Shown here: positions 26,541-63,025 of the stretch, piece after piece
Layout of the letters: every line of letters begins with the position of its first letter
Numbering within the stretch: the first letter of the stretch is position 1
From: a bacterium
GTDB lineage: Bacteria > Patescibacteriota > Minisyncoccia > UBA6257 > GWB1-50-10
Reading direction: 5' to 3'
Length of the DNA: 64,000 nucleotides
Assembly: GCA_021814165.1 (NCBI GenBank)
Contig: JAKAIX010000003.1
Coordinates: 14,551-78,550 of the forward strand
Made by a program: the position numbers and the translations under genes
Notes under the pieces: generated by a model
Databases searched by the model: none
What the model saw: the letters and a program-made list of their open reading frames with translations, nothing else
What the model was told of the DNA's origin: nothing

Positions 26541-26620
26541 GGGCTTCGCCCCGCTCTCCTGCACGGGAGACTAGCGTGTTCTCCCGACCCCACTCCTGTT
26601 CGAGTACTGCGAGAGAAGAT

Positions 26621-26650
26621 AAAAATTCCCGGAACGAATCCGGGAATTTT
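26621..26650. terminator. bidirectional rho-independent terminator hairpin
   Basis: aaaaattcccgg-aacgaa-tccgggaattttt: a GC stem flanked by an A-run and a T-run. Confidence 0.6.
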
Positions 26651-26657
26651 TGTCTTG

Positions 26658-26730
26658 TGCCCCCAGCAGGATTCGAACCTGCGACCTTCTCCTTAAGAGG
26701 GAGCAGCTCTACCAACTGAGCTATAGGGGC
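26658..26730 (-). tRNA. tRNA-Lys (CTT)
   Basis: Reverse complement gcccctatagctcagttggtagagc...ctCTTaa...ggtcgcaggttcgaatcctgctgggggc-a. It is near-identical to the tRNA-Lys(TTT) at 61997 except for the anticodon and the T-loop. Confidence 0.85.
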
Positions 26731-26858
26731 CCTCCTCCGCTTTGATTGTATTATCAAAGCTTCGGACGGGCAAGAATGATGGATCATTATATTCTCGTCC
26801 TTCCGAAGCTCGAATATATTTTCGAGCGAAGGCGGGAGATGTTATCTTATAAATTAAT
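26731..26858. repeat. ~130-bp tRNA-Lys upstream segment duplicated (inverted) at 61866-61996
   Basis: Shared sequence with inner palindromes: cctcctccgctttgattgtattatcaaagcttcggacgggcaagaatgatggatcattatattctcgtccttccgaagctcgaatatatttt. Confidence 0.75.
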
Positions 26859-32207: not shown

Positions 32208-32885
32208 ATGTTTATTCAAGATTGGGCGTCATTGGTCGTAGGTTCGCTTCAGAATCTCTGGGTCGGCTTTTTGAGTACGCTTGCGAGTATCGTGGGCGCG
32301 CTCATCGTGCTTATCATCGGTCTTATCGTTGCTGCGGGCATCGCTTCGCTCGTCGAAAAGATCGTGAATCTCGTGAAGCTCGACAAGCTTCTCGTAAATA
32401 TGGGACTTCAAGAGTATTTCGATCGTGCGGGACTCCGGTTAAACAGTGGAAAATTCTTCCACAGAATCGTCTACTGGTTCCTCGTGGTCGTCTTCCTGCT
32501 TGCGGCGACCGATATCCTTGGCTTCTACTCCCTCTCCAGTTTCTTGAGAGATGTATTGCTGTACGTTCCGAACGTGATCGTGGCGGTGTTGATCATGCTT
32601 GCGGCGCTTGTCATCGGGCACTTCCTGAAGAATGCCGTCACCGTTTCCGTGAAAGGCGCGCGTTTGCATGGTGCGGGATTTCTTGGCTCGCTCACGTGGT
32701 GGGCGGTCGTCGTGTTCGGATTTCTCGCGGCGCTTTCGCAGCTCGGTATCGCGGTGGTGATCGTGAACGCCTTAGTGACCGGTTTTATCGCCATGCTTGC
32801 GCTTGCCTTCGGGCTCGCGTTCGGTTTGGGCGGAAAAGACCAGGCGGCACAGGTGCTCTCGAAATTCCGCGAGCACACGCACTAG
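32208..32885 (+). CDS. membrane protein with repeated conserved TM-helix units (MscS-associated TM_helix-like), function unknown
   Basis: Several similar hydrophobic repeats (LIVLIIGLIVAAGIASL; WFLVVVFLLAATDILG; AVLIMLAALVIGHFL). Confidence 0.5.
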   Translation: MFIQDWASLVVGSLQNLWVGFLSTLASIVGALIVLIIGLIVAAGIASLVEKIVNLVKLDKLLVNMGLQEYFDRAGLRLNSGKFFHRIVYWFLVVVFLLAATDILGFYSLSSFLRDVLLYVPNVIVAVLIMLAALVIGHFLKNAVTVSVKGARLHGAGFLGSLTWWAVVVFGFLAALSQLGIAVVIVNALVTGFIAMLALAFGLAFGLGGKDQAAQVLSKFREHTH

Positions 32886-33144
32886 AAGTTGTTTCTAGAG
32901 TCAGAGAAAACTCCTCGCTTCTGCGGGGAGTTTTGTTGTAGGAGAATATTATCTTCCCCTCGTTCACAAACCTTCAAATATCAGGAACTTTGGTTCGCTC
33001 GCACGTTCCTCGCCATCCTGCTCGGCCTTACGGCGAGGGGCCTGACTCGGCGACGCGGCTCGCTCACAAGTTCCAAGGTATTTTCCGGTAATGTTCACTC
33101 GGAGAAGATAATATTCTATTTTCCTTCCTATTCTCTTTCTCATT

Positions 33145-38946: not shown

Positions 38947-39375
38947 GTGTATATGACTTCATCCGGAAAAGGTCAGATTGCGCTTCCGTTCGTTCTTCTC
39001 ATAAGCGGCATCATCATCGAAATCGTTATCGCGGGATCGTTCGTTACGTACTTTGCGAGTGGTTCCGGATACAGCTCACGGCTTCAGGCGCGCGCGTGGG
39101 CGGCCGCGATGTCGGGAGTGCAGGACGCGTTGGTGAAAATTGCCAAGGATAAAGAATTCGCTCCTTCGACGGTTCAATATGAGTTTACGCTCGACACGGA
39201 TACCGCGACCGTAACCGTTTCGAGAACTCCAGACGCTACGGGGCAGTATTATGTGTACACTGTTACCTCTCTCGGTTCCGCGGGAAGCAGACAAAAGGAA
39301 TTAACTGCGACTGCGGTGGTGCATCAAACCACGGGTGCGCTGCAGCTTCAGTCGGTCGTCGATACGCCGCTCTAA
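38947..39375 (+). CDS. PilX-like / pilin-like small protein (hydrophobic N-terminal helix, no canonical prepilin site)
   Basis: GQIALPFVLLISGIIIEIVIAGSF resembles the PilX N-terminal segment, followed by a beta-rich Thr-rich domain. Confidence 0.45.
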   Translation: MYMTSSGKGQIALPFVLLISGIIIEIVIAGSFVTYFASGSGYSSRLQARAWAAAMSGVQDALVKIAKDKEFAPSTVQYEFTLDTDTATVTVSRTPDATGQYYVYTVTSLGSAGSRQKELTATAVVHQTTGALQLQSVVDTPL

Positions 39376-50053: not shown

Positions 50054-50899
50054 TTAATTCTGGAAAATCTCCTTGATGTATTCTTTTCGCTCCGGCGTCC
50101 AACGGACGTACGTGTCTTCTCCCGGGTACATCCAGATGATATTCGTATTCGGAGAGGCAACATTTCGTATCTGATCCGCCGCTTCCCGCGGCGTCGGCCA
50201 TGAGGTAAGACCGTTACTCCTGAGAGATGCGAAAGCGTCGATGTAATTTCTCCAGGTTCCGCTTTCATAGAACGCGAGACCGTGCGTTTGGATGATCGGC
50301 TGGATTTCGAAACCGTCGCGTTCTATTTTTTCCGCCAGTCTCCTTTGGGATCCGTACATGCTGATTGCGCCGTAGATGGGGTAGTAATCGGGCTGGAATC
50401 CCGCAAGATGGAGATTGGGAATATTCAGAAGTTCCTCATAGGTTTCTATCCTCGGTGTTGCGATAAGCACTTTCTTGCCGGGGAATTTCTCCTTACTCCA
50501 GCCGATCCAACGCTCGATATCGCTGTTGTCGTAGTTACTCTTATGGAGATGCGGTTCGTCGAGTGCAAATCCCTCTACTTCGGATCGGTTTCCCAATATC
50601 TCCATTCTCTTGAAGTCATCGGGATGGAGTGTACCCGCGCTTACATACACCTTTAATCCTTCCTTCCCCGCCTCGTCGATCCTTCGCACCGCATCTTCTT
50701 CACTGAAGTTGCTGATAAGGACATAGCTTATGCCCAGTCGTTTCATTTCCGCGTAGTATGCGGGATTGTCGGCCGACCAGAAACCGAATTTGAGCGTCGG
50801 CGGGAGTTCATGGGATTGCGGCCGCTCGATAACGGAGAAGACAAGGAATATCAAGACGAAAAGCGCGGCAACGGAGAGGATATAAACCAGTTTTTTCAT
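50054..50899 (-). CDS. membrane-anchored putative glycoside-hydrolase-like TIM-barrel protein, function unknown
   Basis: N-terminal TM helix, then alternating beta/alpha character (GISYVLISNF...GLKVYVSAG...VLIATPRIETYEE). Low-confidence fold inference. Confidence 0.5.
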   Translation of the reverse strand: MKKLVYILSVAALFVLIFLVFSVIERPQSHELPPTLKFGFWSADNPAYYAEMKRLGISYVLISNFSEEDAVRRIDEAGKEGLKVYVSAGTLHPDDFKRMEILGNRSEVEGFALDEPHLHKSNYDNSDIERWIGWSKEKFPGKKVLIATPRIETYEELLNIPNLHLAGFQPDYYPIYGAISMYGSQRRLAEKIERDGFEIQPIIQTHGLAFYESGTWRNYIDAFASLRSNGLTSWPTPREAADQIRNVASPNTNIIWMYPGEDTYVRWTPERKEYIKEIFQN

Positions 50900-51825
50900 T
50901 TTTCCAACCTCCTTATGACCGCCTCGATTTTCGGCCAGAGTTGTTTGCGCATGAGTATCGAGCCGGTTTTGTGTTCCGGCTGTCGCGGAATTCCCAGGGC
51001 CTCGGAGAGTATCGCTTCTGATTTTCCGTCGATGGTAAGAAGTATGTTGTACCCCTTAAGAATATCAACGCCGGTAAAGAAAAAATATTCGAGATGTTCC
51101 TCTTTTCGAATGCGATTTAATACGGTAAGAAGCTCCTCTTTTAACGCGGTGAGGGTTGATTCGAGGTTAGCGATTTCAATCTGGGCGATGCAGGTTTTTT
51201 TGCCGCCGATCGTCTTTGGGGAAATATCCTGGAATATCACCTCATAAAGATTGTCGGCGGAAATGTTCGATTTTGATTCAAACATCCGTTTGGTGTAATC
51301 GTCGGGGAGGTCGATGAGTGTTTTGAGATAATCGGCGGCATTCTTGTCTCTTGCGGTTGTCACGGAATTTCTGAAATCCACCGTGCTGGAGACGATAGCC
51401 GAGTAGAGATACGTGGCGGTCTTGGGGGATGGTACAAACCCGTGTGTTTTGAGCCGCTCAACGATAAGTGTGGCGCATGAGCCCACCGGTTCTATGGTCT
51501 TTCGGGCGTTTATAAACTGCTCCGTGAATACGAGCTCGCGGTGATCGAAAAGTTCTATGACGTGCTCGGGGGAAATCGTCGGTTCCATTGCTTCGGGGTC
51601 CGCGGTATCAACCAGCACAAACCGATCGTCCGGGCCGTATTCTCCGGAATGTTTCTCGACGGGGAAGTAACCGGTGAATTGTTGTACGAATTTTACTTCA
51701 AGGCCGATATCGCCGTAGTAAACCGCTTTCGCGGGCATACCGGATGCGTTGAGAAATTCCGAGTAGGCGATCATGCATGCAATACCGTCGATGTCGGGAC
51801 AGTCGTAGGAAGTTACAATAGTCAT
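50896..51825 (-). CDS. DHH/DHHA2 phosphoesterase, family-II inorganic pyrophosphatase-like
   Basis: Motif I YDCPDIDGIAC, motif II VLVDTAD, a DHR in place of DHH (LFDHRE), and EPVGSCATLIV resembling PpaC. Confidence 0.65.
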   Translation of the reverse strand: MTIVTSYDCPDIDGIACMIAYSEFLNASGMPAKAVYYGDIGLEVKFVQQFTGYFPVEKHSGEYGPDDRFVLVDTADPEAMEPTISPEHVIELFDHRELVFTEQFINARKTIEPVGSCATLIVERLKTHGFVPSPKTATYLYSAIVSSTVDFRNSVTTARDKNAADYLKTLIDLPDDYTKRMFESKSNISADNLYEVIFQDISPKTIGGKKTCIAQIEIANLESTLTALKEELLTVLNRIRKEEHLEYFFFTGVDILKGYNILLTIDGKSEAILSEALGIPRQPEHKTGSILMRKQLWPKIEAVIRRLEK

Positions 51826-53473: not shown

Positions 53474-54049
53474 ATGAATATGAATATCGACATCAAGTCG
53501 CATCCGGTCTCGGTGTTGCAGCCGTTTTTCAGAGATATAGCCCTTGTTCTCGGTTCATCTGCAATGCTCGAGTTCAGTTACTATAAGTACCAACCGCAGA
53601 CGCTGGAGGACGAGCGAAAACTCTTCAAGGTAAATATTACGGATGTCACTCCGGAATGGTTTTTTGAAATCCATCAGAAGATAGAAGAAGGATACGAACT
53701 TGCGATGCACTCGCGAGTATGGAATGGAAACGAGATGAGGCACATGTTAATGGCTGATATGGCGGTTAAGAACAGCCGGATGGACTTGCTTCCAAGAAGA
53801 ATGTATCTGCCGAGTCTTCAGAAATCCGTACAGCCGCACTACTTCAATTCCGGCCGCTCGTTCCATTCTTATGTCCCCGTTCTGACCTCGGATGATGACG
53901 CGCTAAGAAAATTTTTCTGCGACCTACTCATCCACCACAGCCAGCTTTTTGATGGCAGATGGATGGGACACCGCCTACTGGCAGGCTACGCCGCGTTGCG
54001 ATGGAGTTGCAATACCGGGCAGTATCGCTCCGCCCCAAGATTGGTTTAA
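53474..54049 (+). CDS. hypothetical protein (no recognisable motif)
   Basis: 191-aa ORF with coding-like composition, ending ~120 nt before the glycosyltransferase start. Confidence 0.4.
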   Translation: MNMNIDIKSHPVSVLQPFFRDIALVLGSSAMLEFSYYKYQPQTLEDERKLFKVNITDVTPEWFFEIHQKIEEGYELAMHSRVWNGNEMRHMLMADMAVKNSRMDLLPRRMYLPSLQKSVQPHYFNSGRSFHSYVPVLTSDDDALRKFFCDLLIHHSQLFDGRWMGHRLLAGYAALRWSCNTGQYRSAPRLV

Positions 54050-56052: not shown

Positions 56053-56427
56053 TTAGATAAAATTTAAGAAGTAGTGCAGAACAGCTCCTGCGACGAGTGC
56101 TGCAGCAGCTCTCAATATCATCTCCTTATAGAGAGTGATTAGTTTCCTGCCCCTTGTAGCTCCTTCCTCTTCCGCCTCGATTTCAAGGTGGTTGTGATTC
56201 CTTTTCACCCTGTAATCGTGTTTCACGAAAGCGAAAAGGAGGTATATTCCTGCGCCTTGAGAAAGCGTGAGTGCCGGGACGAAGTGGAATGTTCCCGTCA
56301 CGAACCACAGCCATAGCACTTTTAGCACGAAGCCGTGGATTAGCGAACGGAGGAGGAATCCTCCCGCCCCGGTAAGGTGAACGTCGAAGAAATTAAGAAA
56401 CTTCTTCTTTCCTTTTAGCGTTTTCAA
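56053..56427 (-). CDS. small membrane protein (3 TM), hypothetical; TTG start behind RBS GGAGA
   Basis: Sits downstream of conserved promoter P1. RBS ataGGAGAatagaaTTG. Hydrophobic helices GGFLLRSLIHGFVLKVLWLWFV and AAAALVAGAVLHYFL. Confidence 0.5.
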   Translation of the reverse strand: MKTLKGKKKFLNFFDVHLTGAGGFLLRSLIHGFVLKVLWLWFVTGTFHFVPALTLSQGAGIYLLFAFVKHDYRVKRNHNHLEIEAEEEGATRGRKLITLYKEMILRAAAALVAGAVLHYFLNFI

Positions 56428-56476
56428 TTCTATTCTCCTATGAAATTGGTAAAAATCTAAATGTTTAAGTGAAAAT

Positions 56477-56505
56477 AAAATAGCACATTTCTGTGCCATA
56501 GTCAA
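56477..56505 (-). promoter_or_regulatory. conserved sigma70-like promoter P1 (TTGACT-17-TATTTT) with embedded CACAGAAATGTG palindrome
   Basis: Reverse complement TTGACTatggcacagaaatgtgcTATTTT. The same 25-nt core recurs at 58637-58665 and 61030-61053. Confidence 0.6.
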
Positions 56506-56560
56506 CCTCAACTTTACCTCTCTGTTAATTTCTCCCTTAAGATCCGCCCATTCTTGCTTC

Positions 56561-57343
56561 TTAAAGCTTTTCAAATATGTAACCTCTGGCGCGAATTGCA
56601 GGTACGATCTTCCGCAATACGTCGTAGCTTGCCGGAGCGTTCGGTCCTCCTATGTGCATTAAAATAACACCGTTGTTCTTTAATCGCGCAAGAATGTGGT
56701 TCGCTATTCTGTTTCCGTCCGGATTAAAAGGGTCAGACGCAAATATATTTCCTTCGTTGATCTCGAGTCCTAAGCTTTGTACGAGCGCGTCGTCTCCCTT
56801 TCCGCTGCAAAGACCGGGGTATCGGAAGTAGCGGGGTTTTTGTCCGGTAATATGCTCCAGAATCGTCTGTGTTTCTTCGATCTGCGCTATCTTTTCCTGG
56901 GGAGTAACGAGGGGAGTAAGCCAATAGCAGTGAGGAATGAAACCGGACTCGTCATAGCTGTGATTTTGGAAAGAAAACATTGTTGTGCTGGCAAGAGAAC
57001 GCATGAGATCGGGATATGTCTCGGCAAAAAGCCCAGATACAAAGAAGGTGGCGGGAATCCGTTCTTTCTCCAGATATGCGAAGATGCGCGGATCATACCA
57101 TTCTTGTACCAGCCCTTTTTGGTACTTACGTAGCATGGCCTCGTTCATGTCCATATCCATGGTGAGGAAGATGGTTTTGTGGGATTCTGCGATCGTGCCG
57201 CTTGCAACCGCCATAACGGTAGATACCGGCATATATGAGGAGGGATCCGCACGTCTCTGGTATGCCGAATGGAACGCGGGAATGTAGGCACATAACAAAA
57301 ATATGAATACGGCACCGGGTAGAAGAAAAATTAAATGTTTCAT
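56561..57343 (-). CDS. polysaccharide deacetylase (NodB/CE4 family), secreted
   Basis: Signal peptide present. The motifs TFFVSG (Asp/His motif 1 region), HSYDE/H-x-H-like and RYPGL are characteristic of CE4. Confidence 0.75.
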   Translation of the reverse strand: MKHLIFLLPGAVFIFLLCAYIPAFHSAYQRRADPSSYMPVSTVMAVASGTIAESHKTIFLTMDMDMNEAMLRKYQKGLVQEWYDPRIFAYLEKERIPATFFVSGLFAETYPDLMRSLASTTMFSFQNHSYDESGFIPHCYWLTPLVTPQEKIAQIEETQTILEHITGQKPRYFRYPGLCSGKGDDALVQSLGLEINEGNIFASDPFNPDGNRIANHILARLKNNGVILMHIGGPNAPASYDVLRKIVPAIRARGYIFEKL

Positions 57344-57662
57344 GTACTGCCGCGATTTGATTTAAATGTCATTATAATGGCACAGCTTATACAAAGACAC
57401 AAAGAGGGAGGAGAAATTCGAATCCTGCATGAATGCATCAAGACGACATCCGAAAAGCAAGAGCTCCTCGGTCGCACGATAACAAGAATCGACCACCCCT
57501 CTATGTGGACAAGTTCAGAGCCGTGGAGTGGGGGAAAATTGAAAAGAGACCCACATTTCTACTGGTTAATTATTCATTTCGGAGGGTCGCTTAGGATCCT
57601 TAAAAAATAAAGAGCAGCCTTCAATAAAGCTGCCCTCATAATTACTTGATTATTAGCTAAGA

Positions 57663-57992
57663 CTAAGAGAGAAGTTCTCTTGCCTTAGTTTCAACAACTT
57701 TTTTCAGCTTATCCTCGTCTACAAGGGTTCTGACGATAGGATTCGAAGGTTGAATGTTTAAAACAGCCTTCTTTTCTTCCACTCGTATGCTACCCTCTAT
57801 CTTGGCGCGTTTGAACCCTTGTTTGACTTTGAAAGAGAAAATCATCAAGTTGCCGATCCGCCAGAGTTTTTCCGGATCCTTTATTTCCACCTTCTTATCA
57901 GAAAAATCTTTCTTCATTAGTTCGGAAAGAAAGTTATCGATCCTTTTGACTGCCTCGGTTGTACCGAGATTGTGTGATATTGTTATTTCCAA
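57663..57992 (-). CDS. polyhydroxyalkanoic-acid-system family protein-like (TIGR02610-type small protein), function unknown
   Basis: MEITISHNLGTTEAVKRIDNFLSELMKK...KIEGSIRVEEKKAVLNIQ parallels the small PHA-system family (M.I.I.H.LG...EG.i.vee..i.v.l). A terminator follows at 57611-57645. Confidence 0.5.
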   Translation of the reverse strand: MEITISHNLGTTEAVKRIDNFLSELMKKDFSDKKVEIKDPEKLWRIGNLMIFSFKVKQGFKRAKIEGSIRVEEKKAVLNIQPSNPIVRTLVDEDKLKKVVETKARELLS

Positions 57993-58013
57993 GTTGTCCT
58001 CCTTAGGAATTGT

Positions 58014-58532
58014 TTATTTACTGTGTGTAACTTTGTGTATGACAATTTCGATGCCAAAATTCGGATCGGTATATTTTCTGAGGAGAAGATCTTTTATTTC
58101 AAGCACGTATGCAGCCTCGTTTGGATCTGAGAGTTCCTGGATAGCCTCTTCTACTGTTTTACCGGTAGTGCTTATGTTTCTGTTAAACCAGGTGTTCGAG
58201 CGCCAAAGGCTAAATCTCACCTTTTCAAGATCGTATTGTTTTATCATACCGATTTCCTGACCATCGGCTGCTATTAATATAAAACGAAGGTTTTCTATCC
58301 TGTCCGGTCTTCTCAGACGCCGATTCCACGCACTTGTCCATGGATAGCGGGACATTAGATCAGAGTCGGCCTTCTGAACCTGCGGTACTTTATGCAATTT
58401 TTTGATCTCTGGGTATCTCTTCAGAAAAGGATATTCCTTCAAAAGCGCATCGATTCGTATATTCAGTATGCTTTTTTTGACAACATCGATGATCATTTCT
58501 GCGAGTAATTCTGTTTCTGTCTTATCTCTCAT
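58014..58532 (-). CDS. hypothetical protein (172 aa) behind conserved promoter P2
   Basis: RBS AAGGAG 7 nt before the ATG (MRDKTETELL). Coding-like composition; no recognised motif. Confidence 0.6.
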   Translation of the reverse strand: MRDKTETELLAEMIIDVVKKSILNIRIDALLKEYPFLKRYPEIKKLHKVPQVQKADSDLMSRYPWTSAWNRRLRRPDRIENLRFILIAADGQEIGMIKQYDLEKVRFSLWRSNTWFNRNISTTGKTVEEAIQELSDPNEAAYVLEIKDLLLRKYTDPNFGIEIVIHKVTHSK

Positions 58533-58636
58533 AGTTTTCTCCTTGTGACATCCAGCCACAATTTACGAAGTGGGTATTCCACCCGCTTCAGAGTTGTTGA
58601 ATTTGTTAAATAACACCCGATAGATTGGGTGTAAAG

Positions 58637-58665
58637 AAAATAACACATTTCTGTTCTATTGTCAA
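58637..58665 (-). promoter_or_regulatory. conserved promoter P2 (TTGACA-17-TATTTT) with ACAGAAATGTGT core
   Basis: Reverse complement TTGACAatagaacagaaatgtgtTATTTT. Followed by a ~100-nt 5' UTR containing the hairpin acacccaatctatcgggtgt. Confidence 0.6.
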
Positions 58666-58818
58666 CTTTAATTCCGAGCTGTACGTGAACTTCGAACCGT
58701 AATAATGGACGGCTGGCACTCTTACGAAATGTGCGCGACCGTCAAAATGCTCCGCCGGGAGTTATCGTTCGATTGGATTGATTAAAGATTTTCTTCAATC
58801 TGATAATATGTACGTTCG

Positions 58819-59331
58819 TCATATTTTTCGGCTGTCGTATGCCCAGTGCAGAACCGCCTGCCTTTGTGCAGGCCGGCAAGTTAAATCTTTCGGCCGGCAA
58901 TTCTTTTTGATTTGCGATATGTGTCGGCTGATCGCTTTCCACCGCTTGATCTGCCGTTCGTCTTCGCCCGGAAGCCGCCTGCCCATGTAGTAGCGACAAT
59001 ACCACTGGAACCAGCCGCGAGGGTCGTGCTTTTCGTTGATCCAACCTTTCTCAACCCAGACTTTAAGCGGCTGGCTAGCATGCTTATGGAAAAAGTTGAG
59101 TGTGTCGTCGTGATGTTCTAGTGAAAGCTTGGCGCGAGTAAACCAGTCTTTTGGAAATTCCTTTTTGCAGTCGGTCATATATTTGCCGCCAAAGACGCCG
59201 AGCGCGAGCATCTGTTTTGGCGTAAGCTCCGGCTTGAAATCCGGATGAAAATTCCGTCCTACCGGTTCGGTAAGCTGGTACTTGTAACCTTTCTGAAATT
59301 TATCGTTTACTTTTACGGTCTTTTTTCTCAT
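58819..59331 (-). CDS. conserved hypothetical basic protein (GWFQWYCRYYMGRR motif)
   Basis: 170 aa, Lys/Arg/Trp-rich, with no TM helix. It is upstream of and probably co-transcribed with the P2 unit. Confidence 0.55.
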   Translation of the reverse strand: MRKKTVKVNDKFQKGYKYQLTEPVGRNFHPDFKPELTPKQMLALGVFGGKYMTDCKKEFPKDWFTRAKLSLEHHDDTLNFFHKHASQPLKVWVEKGWINEKHDPRGWFQWYCRYYMGRRLPGEDERQIKRWKAISRHISQIKKNCRPKDLTCRPAQRQAVLHWAYDSRKI

Positions 59332-59340
59332 AAATATTTG

Positions 59341-59799
59341 TTATCGGATTACAAGATATATGGCCAAGAGAAGCAATCCGCCCCACCAGCCGATATCGGA
59401 GACAATGAGGCTTGCCATGATTTTCCTTTGCCAGGAAGCCGGCAGGAGTTCTCCGGACAGGCCCTCTTTCTCACGCTTCAATAAAAACGGACTGACTTTG
59501 AAAGACAGAAAATAGCCGTTCAAGATGAGGGCGAGCGCGATCACCGCATGGATGAGCGGAATGCCGGCAAAGCTTTGCTCGCGGTAGAAAATCATACCGC
59601 CGATAATAGCGAGCATAATGCCGGCCCAGATCATCGGCTTAGTCACTTTGTGCGTGCGTGTAGTAGCTTCGGTCCAGTATGATGACTTTCGTCCGAGAAA
59701 ACCGTGGATATCTATGACCGTTACCGCTCCAAGGCCGATCACGAAACCGGCGAAGAATAGAAATAGTCCGATTGTATCGAGCCATTCGACCGAGCTCAT
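59341..59799 (-). CDS. integral membrane protein (4 TM), hypothetical
   Basis: Hydrophobic helices (IGLFLFFAGFVIGLGAVTVI; MIWAGIMLAIIGGMIFY; IHAVIALALILNGYFL; GWWGGLLLLAIYLVI). Confidence 0.55.
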   Translation of the reverse strand: MSSVEWLDTIGLFLFFAGFVIGLGAVTVIDIHGFLGRKSSYWTEATTRTHKVTKPMIWAGIMLAIIGGMIFYREQSFAGIPLIHAVIALALILNGYFLSFKVSPFLLKREKEGLSGELLPASWQRKIMASLIVSDIGWWGGLLLLAIYLVIR

Positions 59800-59808
59800 G
59801 ATAATAGA

Positions 59809-60285
59809 TTAATTGAGAACATAAATTGAATAATTTAAGTACATGGCAAAACTAACCCATGCTATGTAAGGCACCAAGAGCCATGCCGTCGGACGAGATA
59901 TTTTTGCAAAAGCGATGATCGTGGCAAGAATAGCAAGCCAGAGGAATATGATCTCAATAAATGCGCCGCCCGGAGAATGCAGACCGAAAAAGATAATTGA
60001 CCAAAGTGTGTTCAATACCAACTGGCCGAGAAATATGCCGAGGGCAATTTTTACATCCCTTCTCACAAGCCCCTTTTTCCAGACCAGAAACGCGGCGATG
60101 CCCATGAGCGTGTAGAGTGTCGTCCAAACCGGACCGAAGACCCACGCAGGAGGATTTAGAACCGGTTTGACGATCCCGGCATACCAAGTCGGGATGGCCG
60201 AGGCGGTAAAAATCGAACCGATTATTCCAGCCGCTTCTGATACCACGATCGCAATAACCAATTTGAAGAAATTATTGAGCTTCAT
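59809..60285 (-). CDS. tspO: TspO/MBR family tryptophan-rich sensory protein
   Basis: 5-TM protein with PAWVFGPVWTTLYTLMGIAAFLVW (W-x-PP-x-W-x-F-x3-W-x2-LY signature) and 158 aa. Confidence 0.75.
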   Translation of the reverse strand: MKLNNFFKLVIAIVVSEAAGIIGSIFTASAIPTWYAGIVKPVLNPPAWVFGPVWTTLYTLMGIAAFLVWKKGLVRRDVKIALGIFLGQLVLNTLWSIIFFGLHSPGGAFIEIIFLWLAILATIIAFAKISRPTAWLLVPYIAWVSFAMYLNYSIYVLN

Positions 60286-60467
60286 AATTCAATTTTACCA
60301 TTTACTGCTATTTTCGTCCTAGTCTACCGGGGCGAGTTTGGTGGTATTTGTCAATCTAGCTTAGTGGATAGAACGCGTGAGGACTTGTTTGGTGTAAAAT
60401 AATGAACCGCTAAGAAAAAATCTTAGCGGTAAGCAGTCGGTCTGCTTAGTCCTTTGAAGTTATACAC

Positions 60468-60962
60468 CTAGGAGAAGAGGGGGCCGGCGATACTAACACC
60501 GATAATGTGTGGTGAGAGGCTCTTTTCCGATCTCGGTTGATAAGAGACGATTTTCCAATCTTCTCTTATAGCAAGAGCCCCATGTTCTGTGCCGACTATA
60601 TTGTGTGCTGTTGCCCAGAAAAGTTGTTCGAGGATATCGGCCTTCTCTTCAAGCGGCTCAAGCTTGCTTTTGAACTTTTTGCATTCTTCCGATACTCTTT
60701 CTAATCCGTCGCCTTTTTCGTCTCTGAGCGCGTCACGCAGAAGACCGGGCAGATCCATTTTCTTGTGAAACAGTCCGTGTTCTGTTTTTAGAGTGTTTAT
60801 TTCTTGGACCATTTTCGAATGTAGAGAATAAATCTTCTTCATTTCATCGTCTGCCTCTCCGACGATCCTTTCTTCCTCGAGTTTTTCTCCCGCTTTTTCA
60901 GGGGCGATGATATCAGTAACACCATTGATCTCATTAGAGAGACCCTGCAAAAAACTAGTCAT
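60468..60962 (-). CDS. acidic coiled-coil hypothetical protein behind conserved motif P3
   Basis: RBS AAGGAGG 7 nt before the ATG. Glu/Lys-rich helical protein with no recognised domain. Confidence 0.5.
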   Translation of the reverse strand: MTSFLQGLSNEINGVTDIIAPEKAGEKLEEERIVGEADDEMKKIYSLHSKMVQEINTLKTEHGLFHKKMDLPGLLRDALRDEKGDGLERVSEECKKFKSKLEPLEEKADILEQLFWATAHNIVGTEHGALAIREDWKIVSYQPRSEKSLSPHIIGVSIAGPLFS

Positions 60963-61029
60963 TTGTGACCTCCTTCGGTTGATGGTTAGTTAGATGGATA
61001 AGGAATTATGAAATTGCAATAATAGAGTG

Positions 61030-61053
61030 ACACATTTCTATGCTATTTGTCAA
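61030..61053 (-). promoter_or_regulatory. third copy of the conserved CACATTTCT-N-TGTCAAC motif (P3; -10 element degenerate)
   Basis: Plus strand gacacatttctatgctatttgtcaacg. The TTGACA -35 and the AGAAATGTGT core are retained, but the -10 is poor (CACTCT) or displaced (TATTAT, 23-nt spacing). Confidence 0.45.
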
Positions 61054-61236
61054 CGTTTCGGCGGAGTTTCACCCGTATCTGAACTCTGCAGGTAGGACTC
61101 GCTTCTCGCGTTGCTCGAAACACTCAAAAAACATAGTCGTTTCACTCCTTGTTTTTGGGTGCCTCCGGTTCAAGCTCTACCTGTACGAAACAGAAACCAA
61201 AATACCGCACCATAAAGATGCGGCATTTTGATTTTT

Positions 61237-61308
61237 GCTCCGGCGGTAGGATTCGAACCTACAACCATCTCCTTAACAGGGAGCCGCACTACCATTGTGC
61301 TACGCCGG
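61237..61308 (-). tRNA. tRNA-Asn (GTT)
   Basis: Reverse complement tccggcg-ta-gcacaatggtagtgc...ctGTTaa...gtagg-ttcgaat-cctac-cgccgga-g. A terminator hairpin gccgcatctttatggtgcggtatttt lies downstream. Confidence 0.85.
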
Positions 61309-61451
61309 AATACAGCTATAAGAATAATAACAACAAGGCCCGATGTAAAGTACTCGGGCCCGTTATTCTAGTTACTTAGGAGTTTTAATATTTATTTTTT
61401 GAATTGTTTGTTAAGGTTGCTAATTTATCGTAATTCAATTATAACGTTCTT

Positions 61452-61865: not shown

Positions 61866-61996
61866 GAATTCTAACGAGCCCCTATAGCTTCCTCCTTCGC
61901 TCAAAAATATATTCGAGCTTCGGAAGGACGAGAATATAATGATCCATCATTCTTGCCCGTCCGAAGCTTTGATAATACAATCAAAGCGGAGGAAGG
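61866..61996. repeat. inverted duplicate of the tRNA-Lys upstream segment (partner of 26731-26858)
   Basis: Near-identical to the reverse complement of 26731-26858 (ttcctccttcgctcaaaaatatattcgagcttcggaaggacgagaatataatgatccatcattcttgcccgtccgaagctttgataatacaatcaaagcggaggaagg). It is preceded at 61868-61881 by a 12-nt echo of the tRNA 5' end (gcccctatagct). Confidence 0.75.
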
Positions 61997-62069
61997 GCCC
62001 CTATAGCTCAGTTGGTAGAGCTGCTCCCTTTTAAGGAGAAGGTCGCAGGTTCGAGTCCTGCTGGGGGCA
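61997..62069 (+). tRNA. tRNA-Lys (TTT)
   Basis: gcccctatagctcagttggtagagc...ctTTTaa...ggtcgcaggttcgagtcctgctgggggc-a. CCA is not encoded. Confidence 0.85.
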
Positions 62070-62074
62070 CAAGA

Positions 62075-62110
62075 TAAAATCTCCGGATTCACTCCGGAGA
62101 TTTTATTTTC
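62075..62110 (+). terminator. rho-independent terminator after tRNA-Lys
   Basis: aaaatctccgga-ttcac-tccggagatttt followed by a T-run. Confidence 0.75.
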
Positions 62111-62226
62111 CTCTATTGACAATAAAAACTGGTTATGGTGAACTACGCTTAGCTACTAAATAACACTTACTTGGAGCTTCCGAAACGTAGTAGGAAGTGG
62201 AGGGTAAGTAGGAAAAGGAGTACACA

Positions 62227-62826
62227 ATGGCAAAATCATCGATTGTTCGAGGTCTGAGCTTTGGCTCAGAATTTTTTACCTGTTTCTTCAAGGAGGTCTT
62301 GGAATTTAGCGGTACGGAAGAAGAAGTATTTGATGCAATAAAAACAGGGAGTCCACTCATCAAAAAATGGGCGAGTGAAGCGATCGCTCACACGAGAGAG
62401 ATTCCGTCTCTCTATAATCTAATGGGTGCTGCCCGTGTGGAACAAACTGTCCCCACTATTGCGGAGGAAAACTTTCCCATCCAACCAGAAGACCTTATCA
62501 AGGAAAAGAGCTACAAGAAGTTTTACTCCATGAAAACCTATGAGTTTGAGGATATGGCTAAAAAAATGAACAAAGAAGGTTACCGTCCTGCAACCATTCG
62601 CGAAATGCTCTCTTGGGCTGTTGAAAATTGGGATGAAAAATACAGTGAATTAAGAATCTTTGCGATTGGTTCACATTATGCCGATCCAATACTACACGCT
62701 TGTGTTCCTGTCCTTCTCGCTCCGATGAGGGGCGGATCTATGCCTAGGAGAGTTCCTAAATTACTACTCAAAAATCCAAAACATTTTGCCACCATGGAAG
62801 ATATTTTTCTCGGTGTCGCGAGATAA
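62227..62826 (+). CDS. hypothetical protein carried on the tRNA-Lys-bounded cassette
   Basis: Strong RBS AAAGGAG 8 nt before the ATG, and an upstream TTGACA box. Low-GC composition, 199 aa, no recognised motif. Confidence 0.5.
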   Translation: MAKSSIVRGLSFGSEFFTCFFKEVLEFSGTEEEVFDAIKTGSPLIKKWASEAIAHTREIPSLYNLMGAARVEQTVPTIAEENFPIQPEDLIKEKSYKKFYSMKTYEFEDMAKKMNKEGYRPATIREMLSWAVENWDEKYSELRIFAIGSHYADPILHACVPVLLAPMRGGSMPRRVPKLLLKNPKHFATMEDIFLGVAR

Positions 62827-62910: not shown

Positions 62911-62960
62911 CTCCCTTTTAAGGAGAAGGTCGCAGGTTCGAGTCCTGCTGGGGGCACAAA
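62911..62960 (+). repeat. direct repeat of the tRNA-Lys 3' half (att-like integration scar)
   Basis: ctcccttttaaggagaaggtcgcaggttcgagtcctgctgggggcacaa is identical to tRNA-Lys(TTT) positions 62020-62071, from the anticodon stem through 2 nt past the 3' end. It is followed by a terminator hairpin gcccacc-ttacga-ggtgggt-TTTTT. Confidence 0.8.
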
Positions 62961-63025
62961 AGTTAACTACTTAGGCAAAAATGCCCACCTTACGAGGTGG
63001 GTGTTTTTGTGGTATGATCTCTTAG

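Follow-up and report, generated by a model that had tools for sequence, protein, structure and literature searches.

We analysed a stretch of 64,000 nucleotides (nt) of contig JAKAIX010000003.1 (assembly GCA_021814165.1; Patescibacteriota, Minisyncoccia), here called the window, in which three promoter-like sites, P1, P2 and P3, share a motif with a palindrome between the -35 and -10 boxes. Through comparison with other genomes, we found that P1 to P3 appear to be local copies, one intact and the rest decayed, of a promoter element that has a hairpin in its spacer and occurs widely in bacteria of the candidate phyla radiation (CPR). Judged from its covariation, intramolecular pairing in this element is clearly under selection at the family level. 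We tentatively read the element, with a probability of about 0.45, as an insulator or terminator and a promoter in one, which would head accessory gene cassettes. The CPR bacteria account for much of bacterial diversity and have tiny genomes with few recognisable regulators, and to our knowledge almost nothing is known of how they start and stop transcription. A promoter type with a hairpin between its boxes, present in many CPR bacteria, is apparently undescribed; the literature search revealed no paper describing the motif or the promoter/terminator architecture of CPR bacteria.

Promoter module in CPR bacteria

The first scan covered one genome per species with the pattern TTGACN{1,2}ATNNNANAGAAATGTG, in which the loop was forced, and listed at least 119 loci, none of them from the source assembly. 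Most of the listed loci were single ordinary promoters, mainly from Firmicutes, or unrelated sequences. At least 17 were located in CPR genomes, including Saccharibacteria, Minisyncoccia, Parcubacteria, Paceibacterota, Doudnabacteria and unclassified Patescibacteria. All 17 listed CPR loci contained a longer form, TTGACA(A)-ATA[G/C]CACA-GAAA-TGTG[C/G]TAT followed by T-rich sequence (as a pattern, TTGACA(A)ATA[G/C]CACAGAAATGTG[C/G]TATT). At the positions left free by the pattern the stem was complementary in 14 of them, and the other three had T.G. The -10 element was T-rich (TATTTT, TATTGT, TATTCT, TACTTT and the like) in 17 of 17, and TATAAT was found in none.

Because the first pattern forced the loop, metagenomes were scanned with the loop left free (TTGACN{1,2}ATANCACNNNNNNGTGNTATT), and at least 120 loci with 113 unique sites were obtained. 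A Shine-Dalgarno sequence and a start codon lay within 60 nt downstream in 69 of the 113 listed sites. A relaxed scan of the CPR loci revealed an extra site with a different loop and intact arms, and another with a TGTGnCACT variant resembling P3. The family composite comprises TTGACA(A), a stem arm ATAnCACn, a tetraloop, a stem arm nGTGnTAT and a T-rich tail ending in YAG. This pyrimidine-purine YAG, conserved in the relatives 6-7 nt after TATT(T/G)T, fits a transcription start 6-8 nt after the -10 element. No Rfam match was found at the modules in 20 related loci or in the module array of a Parcubacteria contig (L053).

A phage origin of the module was considered and rejected. The CPR-type module with its GNRA loop and T-rich tail was not found in IMG/VR, which contained only other palindromic-spacer promoters without GNRA bias, and PHROG matches were limited to the membrane protein encoded downstream of P1.

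Selection on the hairpin

The free stem pair (n:n' in the composite) was Watson-Crick in 88 of the 113 listed sites, comprising 38 C-G, 24 G-C, 15 T-A and 11 A-T pairs, with another 10 G.U pairs. The loop-closing pair was Watson-Crick in 84 sites, again with all four types, and G.U in 11 more. Departures from pairing at these two free pairs were of the G.U type in 21 cases and of the A.C type in 10. The covariation score over 81 distinct hairpins was 0.223, compared with 0.059 +/- 0.011 in shuffled sets (0 of 500 reached the observed value) and at most 0.05 in slid controls. The four inner bases belonged to the GNRA class in 45 sites, to the reverse-complement class in only 4, and to UUCG in one. 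Covariation at free positions together with strand-biased GNRA loops indicates a hairpin selected as a single strand, not a symmetric operator.

Eight extra hairpins in the same loci, outside the search selection, had TTGAC at position -1 or -2. Since TTGAC stands beside hairpins that the pattern had not selected, the linkage of -35 box and hairpin is real. A few extra hairpins without TTGAC resembled a non-CPR, operator-type family. The TTGACA promoters without a hairpin were T-rich, not A-rich, before GTG, so the GNRA bias is not a general preference of the spacer. Wobble pairs in the forced arms were rejected as evidence for RNA: the right arm TGTGnTAT is rich in T and G, and any transition in the left arm gives G.T. 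Only the two free pairs were counted.

Promoter sites in the window

The coordinates of the sites and of their genes are listed in Table 1. P1 and P2 have a 17-nt spacer, a TG extended -10 element (TGTGC or TGTGT) and TATTTT, and are textbook sigma-70 promoters that were ranked so in the consensus scan. P1 was also listed as terminator-like by that scan (8 pairs and a T-rich tail). The stop codon of the co-directional CE4 deacetylase gene is 55 nt away on the upstream side, and P1 is the only terminator-like feature there. In P2 the hairpin is degraded, with six Watson-Crick pairs, one G.T pair and one mismatch. P3 contains one added base between TTGAC and the 9-mer AGAAATGTG and thus a spacer 1 nt longer than those of P1 and P2. 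At 17-18 nt it has no TAnnnT hexamer; TCACTC or CACTCT stands there, and the nearest alternatives are TATTAT at 23 nt or a promoter-like site GTGTCA-17-CATAAT at 61033-61005. A TGTGnCACT variant like that of P3 is also found in L053 at 713-732. The distance from the -10 element to the start codon is 46 nt for P1, 104 nt for P2 and about 62 nt for P3.

Table 1. Positions of promoter sites, neighbouring elements and genes in the window
Feature	Position	Strand	Sequence or content
P1, sole intact module	56505-56477	-	TTGACT-ATGGCACAGAAATGTGC-TATTTT
P1, -35 box	56505-56500	-	TTGACT
P1, hairpin (8+4+8)	56499-56480	-	ATGGCACA-GAAA-TGTGCTAT
P1, extended -10 element	end at 56477	-	TGTGC-TATTTT
P2	58665-58637	-	TTGACA-ATAGAACAGAAATGTGT-TATTTT, 17-nt spacer
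tRNA-T-arm-like segment	58673-58698	-	GGTTCGAAGTTCACGTACAGCTCGGA, 7 nt upstream of the P2 -35 box
P3	61053-~61024	-	TTGACA-AATAGCATAGAAATGTG-TCACTC
P3, parts	61053-61048 (TTGACA)	-	TTGACA, 1 nt extra, left arm ATAGCATA, loop GAAA, right arm TGTGTCAC
Fourth, decayed copy	57549-57568	-	AGAAATGTG exact at 57552-57560
Diverged relative, same architecture	53388-53361	-	TTGACG-AATGCCGCAAGCGTGG-TACTTT
Site upstream of TspO gene	60341-60354	-	TTGACAAATACCAC; -35 box and left arm, no matching right arm
tRNA-Asn, anchor beside the gene block	61237-61309	-	own 18-bp terminator at 61234-61194
P1 gene	56053-56430	-	small membrane protein of 125 amino acids (aa), TTG start, AGGAG 7 nt upstream
P2 genes	57663-58532	-	172-aa orphan (58014-58532); 109-aa protein (57663-57992)
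P3 gene	60468-60962	-	164-aa acidic helical protein

The initial annotation had reported one promoter-operator motif at three sites, with a near-perfect CACA-N4-TGTG palindrome in each spacer. The architecture is exact at P1 and P2 and does not extend to P3 with its added base and missing TAnnnT. The palindrome is perfect at P1 only, P2 having AACA and P3 CATA. P1 to P3 do share TTGAC and AGAAATGTG, and a fourth exact copy of this 9-mer had been overlooked. This copy sits upstream of the CE4 deacetylase gene, in a gap of 319 nt. Before it stand GGATCCTAAGCGACCCTCCGA and TTAACC-AGT, in which the -35 box is degenerate and the left arm truncated; the copy has no -10 element, and of the -35 box only TTAACC remains. 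The annotation of sigma-70-type promoter-like sites before genes of unknown function led by a ribosome-binding site (RBS) was borne out.

The 9-mer AGAAATGTG was found four times in the 64 kb compared with 0.55 expected, and all four copies are intergenic, on the minus strand and inside 4.6 kb. Their flanks could not be aligned beyond about 30 nt. An isolated 8-mer GAAATGTG on the plus strand (58726-58733), about 70 nt upstream of P2, is possibly there by chance, with about 0.15 such matches expected in the 5-kb block. Against the relatives, a longer true palindrome of 8+4+8 was seen, ATAGCACA-GAAA-TGTGCTAT. The RNAfold energies were -9.1 kcal/mol for P1, -1.5 for P2, -2.8 for P3, -1.7 for the fourth site and -9.4 for the family consensus. 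With the hairpin lost, P2, P3 and the fourth copy would now be plain promoters at most.

A diverged relative at 53388-53361 folds its spacer as a different hairpin, TGCCGC-AAGC-GTGGTA, and sits upstream of a gene for a 153-aa membrane protein, a homologue of which occurs 1.2 kb downstream of a module in a Saccharibacteria locus (L057). The site has the same architecture and probably belongs to the composite element. The site TTGACAAATACCAC upstream of the TspO gene is possibly a broken module, as its sequence would suggest.

The form TGnTAnnnT was found in 19 of the 40 upstream regions of the window, typically as TGTGGTATAAT or TGGTATAAT without a -35 box, and in many cases joined to the U-tract of the terminator before it. 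As for the palindrome, its TGTG half is the ordinary extended -10 element of this organism. TTGAC and the extended -10 element were combined only at P1, P2 and 53388-53361, indicating a distinct promoter class and not the housekeeping form. The scans of other genomes showed that the motif is not local. With Rfam 15 at E <= 1, the window from 52 to 64 kb gave only tRNAs and chance-level matches.

Genomic context of the modules

The genes downstream of the modules encode proteins of 58-370 aa that are mutually unrelated, and all-against-all BLASTP revealed no common gene family. Eight of ten downstream proteins had no Pfam match, and the other two matched SPFH and Ppnp. An RBS-led gene generally begins 25-110 nt downstream of the module. 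The modules may stand in arrays, such as four in 3.2 kb (L036) or three in 1 kb (L156).

Several modules begin 2-6 nt past an intact tRNA-Met, tRNA-Trp, tRNA-Glu or tRNA-Asn gene, and others follow tmRNA. A tRNA-Asn-type 3' end directly followed by a module was found in three lineages (L110, L186 and L240), of which ARAGORN called a tRNA only in L110. A group I intron lies just upstream of the tRNA-Asn-like 3' end and module in L186 (7855-8047) and at the second L240 site (29-373). These two would be read as intron-containing tRNA genes, and the interruption of the gene by an intron would explain why ARAGORN missed them. In 30 of 143 sites the sequence GGTTCnAA stands 27-36 nt before TTGAC, compared with 5% in controls, and degenerate versions precede P2, P3 and the fourth copy. 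About 33 modules begin within 33 nt of a co-directional stop codon, which leaves no room for a separate terminator.

The closest homologues found of the P1 and P3 genes have plain promoters. The P3-gene homologue (44% identity, L254) is preceded by TTGACA-17-TATGTT and the P1-gene homologue (47% identity, L255) by TTGACA-17-TATAAT, both without AGAAATGTG or palindrome, so the motif is not tied to these genes. Elsewhere L254 contains an intact module, and also a hairpin-less TTGACA-17-TGTGTTATCTT behind a GC-rich terminator.

Both the window and L053 commonly show a related design, in which the U-tract of a GC-rich hairpin continues into TGGTAnnAT. Terminator U-tracts running into an extended -10 element without a -35 box (TTTTTTGGTAAAAT, TTTTTGTGGTATGAT) were found upstream of the genes at 50896-51825, 32222-32941 and 38947-39375. 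The same overlap was also detected at 62985-63016, in the L053 array and in other CPR contigs, and is routine in this genome.

Proposed function of the module

The module is a sigma-70-type promoter (TTGACA, a 17-18-nt spacer, TGTGnTATT(T/G)T, a T-rich discriminator and a YAG start region) in which an 8-bp stem and a tetraloop, mostly GAAA, exactly fill the spacer. The right arm nGTGnTAT is the extended -10 element itself and the left arm ATAnCACn its complement. In the proposed mechanism, the hairpin would act in single-stranded form on the gene strand, most probably in RNA from upstream transcription, and with the following U-rich tract it could form a weak intrinsic terminator or insulator. 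One 45-nt element might then close the preceding transcription unit and start the next. Since the -35 and extended -10 consensus, complementarity and a stable tetraloop would fix nearly every base, such a module could appear conserved across phyla without a dedicated regulator. The modules of the window head small accessory or orphan gene cassettes beside tRNA-Asn, and co-regulation of the three units by a common factor is not needed.

The terminator-like traits of the module are its GNRA or UUCG loops, the U-rich tail, the T-rich -10 element and the positions right after tRNAs and stop codons. They fit an intrinsic terminator or insulator fused to a promoter, a role of the hairpin that we propose tentatively.

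Several observations weigh against the reading as a combined terminator and promoter. The consensus stem is weak (-9.4 kcal/mol, 3 G-C pairs), while these genomes have terminators that are long and GC-rich. Should TTGACA and TATTTT be the promoter, the hairpin lies outside the transcript made from it, and a role in RNA needs transcription entering from upstream. Terminator modules were predicted to prefer co-directional upstream genes, and this prediction failed: among the 106 scored sites the upstream gene was co-directional in 77 and divergent in 29, no enrichment over the background, in which 81% is co-directional. Of the divergent cases, no fewer than 6 or 7 rest on long, credible open reading frames (ORFs) and yet keep GNRA or UUCG loops. 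The prediction that separate terminators would be more frequent upstream of TTGACA promoters without a hairpin failed too, as no difference was found. Both scan patterns fix TTGAC and most arm positions, and the counts and the taxonomic range from both scans are lower bounds. Three of the four window copies have lost the hairpin although AGAAATGTG is exact in all, so it could be this 9-mer, not the hairpin, that matters in the window. Recent common descent, or a further constraint that acts locally, may explain why AGAAATGTG is retained in four copies.

If the reading as combined terminator and promoter is true, a consensus promoter with a selected hairpin would provide a concrete and testable rule for transcription-unit boundaries in CPR bacteria. 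It would also provide a practical part for Saccharibacteria genetic systems, as a strong promoter with a built-in insulator, and a sequence tag for fast-evolving accessory genes, which may underlie the epibiotic lifestyle. For the prediction of regulons from motifs there is also a warning, that a 30-nt palindromic promoter may be "conserved" across phyla by stacked physical constraints and with no regulator.

Alternative explanations

P1 to P3 might be paralogues of a single strong promoter that multiplied by local duplication or arrived with acquired genes. Their shared 25 nt would then stem from common descent and from the usual constraints on the -35 box and the extended -10 element, and the hairpin would be a functionless relic here. 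This we consider rather unlikely. The loss of the hairpin in three of four copies would agree with it, as would the plain promoters of homologous genes elsewhere; all window copies moreover have the same loop and the G-type arm, whereas neighbouring modules elsewhere differ in their loops. The flanks, however, are unalignable beyond about 30 nt, the fourth copy retains the 9-mer with all else lost, and the hairpin is clearly selected at the family level.

The initial annotation had read the palindrome as the operator of a repressor that defines a local regulon of P1, P2 and P3. An operator of a dimeric repressor or of a MerR-like activator now seems improbable, though it would fit the palindrome lying between the -35 and -10 boxes, the classic operator position, and the exact AGAAATGTG in four copies of one 4.6-kb block despite their diverged arms. 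Non-CPR and phage contigs also contain operator-like spacer palindromes (ATATCAC-N6-GTGATAT), sometimes repeated and without GNRA bias. Against an operator stands the finding that all four Watson-Crick types occur at positions which a protein would fix or ignore. Both C:G and G:C variants and different loops were found inside single arrays (L036, L156, L193, L228 and L240), and no single protein specificity fits such mixtures. A two-fold symmetric protein site would not yield the loop bias of 45 versus 4 either, which disfavours the operator. The 17-18-nt spacers differ from the 19-20 nt of the MerR type, a good palindrome exists at P1 only, and the closest homologues found of the P1 and P3 genes lack the motif in their upstream regions. 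No DNA-binding domain was recognised in the neighbouring proteins through Pfam, PHROG and structure models, although a regulator could be encoded elsewhere. Half of the palindrome is moreover an ordinary promoter element, and the same composite occurs across CPR classes before unrelated small genes. The annotation was partly confirmed: the observation is real, but it was read too narrowly as a local regulon.

The hairpin might alternatively act at the DNA level, as a cruciform extruded by supercoiling that alters the -35/-10 geometry, or as a single-strand recombination site marking cassette junctions. Hairpins persist in divergent contexts, where there is no upstream transcript to terminate, and the modules are arrayed among small unrelated genes, often 1-8 nt past tRNA or tmRNA 3' ends or tRNA-T-arm-like fragments. 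An 887-bp insertion in the window lies between exact 49-nt tRNA-Lys 3' repeats, and seven copies of a 32-nt repeat mark cassette boundaries in L053. We nevertheless hold such a role unlikely. Near the window sites there was no sign of an integrase or recombinase, the 887-bp insertion lacks a hairpin module, and no presence/absence polymorphism of cassettes at module boundaries was found in the available loci. A cruciform would leave the strand asymmetry of the loops unexplained, and the stems are short for extrusion.

Finally, we consider it quite improbable that the module is the junction of a CPR-wide system accreting small gene cassettes by tRNA and tmRNA genes, with the folded single strand used in recombination or as a supercoiling switch; if this were true, orphan-gene arrays in minimal genomes would be built and individually expressed through one 45-nt element.

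Comparison with known elements

Extended -10 promoters of the sigma-70/sigma-A type ("TGn", or the Gram-positive "-16 region" TRTG) were reportedly described by Voskuil and Chambliss in 1998 and Mitchell et al. in 2003. The module is similar to them in TTGACA, the 17-18-nt spacer, TGTGn and TAnnnT, and the non-CPR matches of the first scan are ordinary promoters of this kind, for example TTGACAATTATACAGAAATGTGGTATAAT in Clostridia. It differs in a systematically T-rich -10 element and discriminator (TATTTT or TATTGT, never TATAAT) and in a spacer forming a covarying 8-bp hairpin with GNRA loops, which is foreign to the known class.

GNRA and UUCG loops were reportedly found enriched in intrinsic terminators by d'Aubenton Carafa et al. 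in 1990. The module resembles these in its hairpin with a GNRA or UUCG loop, the U-rich tract directly after it and its location after tRNA genes or a few to tens of nt past stop codons. In contrast to them, its stem is short and AU-rich at about -9 kcal/mol, with a sequence dictated by promoter elements; the module also stands after divergent genes, and termination here is predicted.

The dyad between -35 and -10, overlapping the -10 region, is shared with MerR sites and with lambda OR1/PR, whose half-site TATCAC resembles ATAnCAC of the module. MerR promoters have 19-20-nt spacers whereas the module has 17 nt (P1 and P2) or 18 nt (the TTGACAA variants). The module combines a GNRA strand bias with free covariation inside a single genome, neither of which is known from protein operators, and no cognate regulator was found here. 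Known operators were compared and rejected: in CRP/FNR (TGTGA-N6-TCACA) and Rex the arms are oriented the other way, CIRCE/HrcA resembles the module in TAGCAC...GTGCTA but has a separation of 13 nt versus 6 nt and stands before chaperone genes, which these are not, the NrdR box has a different spacing, and for LexA the downstream genes are not an SOS set.

The Correia elements of Neisseria and the repetitive extragenic palindromes and bacterial interspersed mosaic elements (REP/BIME) are intergenic hairpin repeats with promoter or terminator activity. Like the module, they are short hairpin-forming elements, often at gene ends and many per genome. For the module, however, no terminal inverted repeats or target duplications were seen, and its similarity spans phyla and would be explained by functional constraints rather than copying. 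Integron arrays likewise have small unrelated genes, mostly unknown, between hairpin sites used as single strands. The attC sites differ in their length of 57-141 nt, their R''/L''-L'/R' cores and their promoterless cassettes, while the module is about 45 nt and is itself the promoter. None of the features defining attC was found in the module, and no integrase was found among the called genes near the window sites.

Genes of the block

The 125-aa P1 protein belongs to a family of membrane proteins of about 100 aa with 75 representatives, and weakly matches phrog_2169, a "moron" membrane protein (E 3.5e-5). Public protein collections hold it as a 148-aa form, 23 residues longer. Read from the sequence, the start of this form is an ATG inside the promoter palindrome (ATGGCACAG..., window 56430-56499). 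Homologues of 100-130 aa align from the TTG at 56430 with AGGAG upstream, and the 148-aa form is probably an over-extension.

The 172-aa P2 protein had no homologue among 5.8 billion proteins, and its AlphaFold2 model had a predicted local distance difference test score (pLDDT) of 47. For the 164-aa P3 protein one homologue was found (44% identity), and the model (pLDDT 63.5) is a long helical hairpin. Comparison of the P2 and P3 models with solved structures gave only generic coiled-coil matches with E of at least 0.35, so that structure prediction, which had been recommended for both proteins, was of low confidence and yielded no informative match.

The TspO homologue and the CE4 deacetylase named by the initial annotation were confirmed in Pfam (E 4e-51 and E 8e-19, respectively). 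The 109-aa protein, assigned to a PHA-system family, reached only 21.2 bits for PHA_gran_rgn and fell under the Pfam cut-off of 26.6. No Pfam family was found for the remaining proteins of the block.

At the block edge on the opposite strand, a 191-aa product (53474-54049) was AEP-like, a primase-polymerase-type family, in precomputed Pfam hits, and had no PHROG match, the P1 membrane protein being the only one with such a match. Its gene lies beside genes for a GT4 glycosyltransferase and a PIG-L deacetylase, and, this match apart, nothing near the block hints at an ancestry in mobile elements.

Additional observations

The 3' two-thirds of tRNA-Lys(TTT) is repeated exactly over 49 nt (62024-62072 and 62911-62959), flanking the 887-bp insertion. 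The insertion contains a terminator, a TTGACA promoter and a single 199-aa ORF (62227-62826) of no family, and no integrase. Past the second repeat a GC-rich hairpin is followed by TTTTTGTGGTATGAT, taken as the host terminator and promoter. From this arrangement, the insertion looks like a mini-cassette integrated into a tRNA gene. The regions of tRNA-Lys(CTT) (26611-26832) and tRNA-Lys(TTT) (61894-62113) are paralogous over about 223 bp with 93% identity, including about 105 nt of upstream promoter region and a downstream terminator with compensatory stem changes.

The 32-nt repeat CAGGTTCTAACATCGTCCCCTAGCCGACCC (the GGTTCTAAC repeat) has seven copies in 5 kb of L053 (673-5183), several of them only a few nt beyond the end of a small ORF. 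After each copy comes either a TTGACA-hairpin module or a GC-rich terminator with TGGTAGGAT. The repeat recurs about 36 nt upstream of TTGACA in unrelated contigs (L250, L176, L137, L245, L173 and L138). Rfam gave no match for it, and it differs from a canonical tRNA 3' half; it might be a site of recombination, an uptake sequence or an element of the 3'-UTR (untranslated region).

In the Pseudomonas fluorescens group (L015, L026, L035, L043, L046 and about 15 more loci), a strongly conserved intergenic sequence TTTTGACCGATATGACAGAAATGTGAAAA...GGTTGACGGCAGATTCTGGAAGTCTATAATTC, present in many Pseudomonas species, matched the first pattern by chance and is unrelated to the CPR module. Four non-CPR metagenome contigs (L149, L169, L205 and L237) contained ATAACAC-GAATAT-GTGTTAT two or three times around one TTGACA promoter, a phage-like arrangement from which it is clear that these arms can also form a true operator in other settings.

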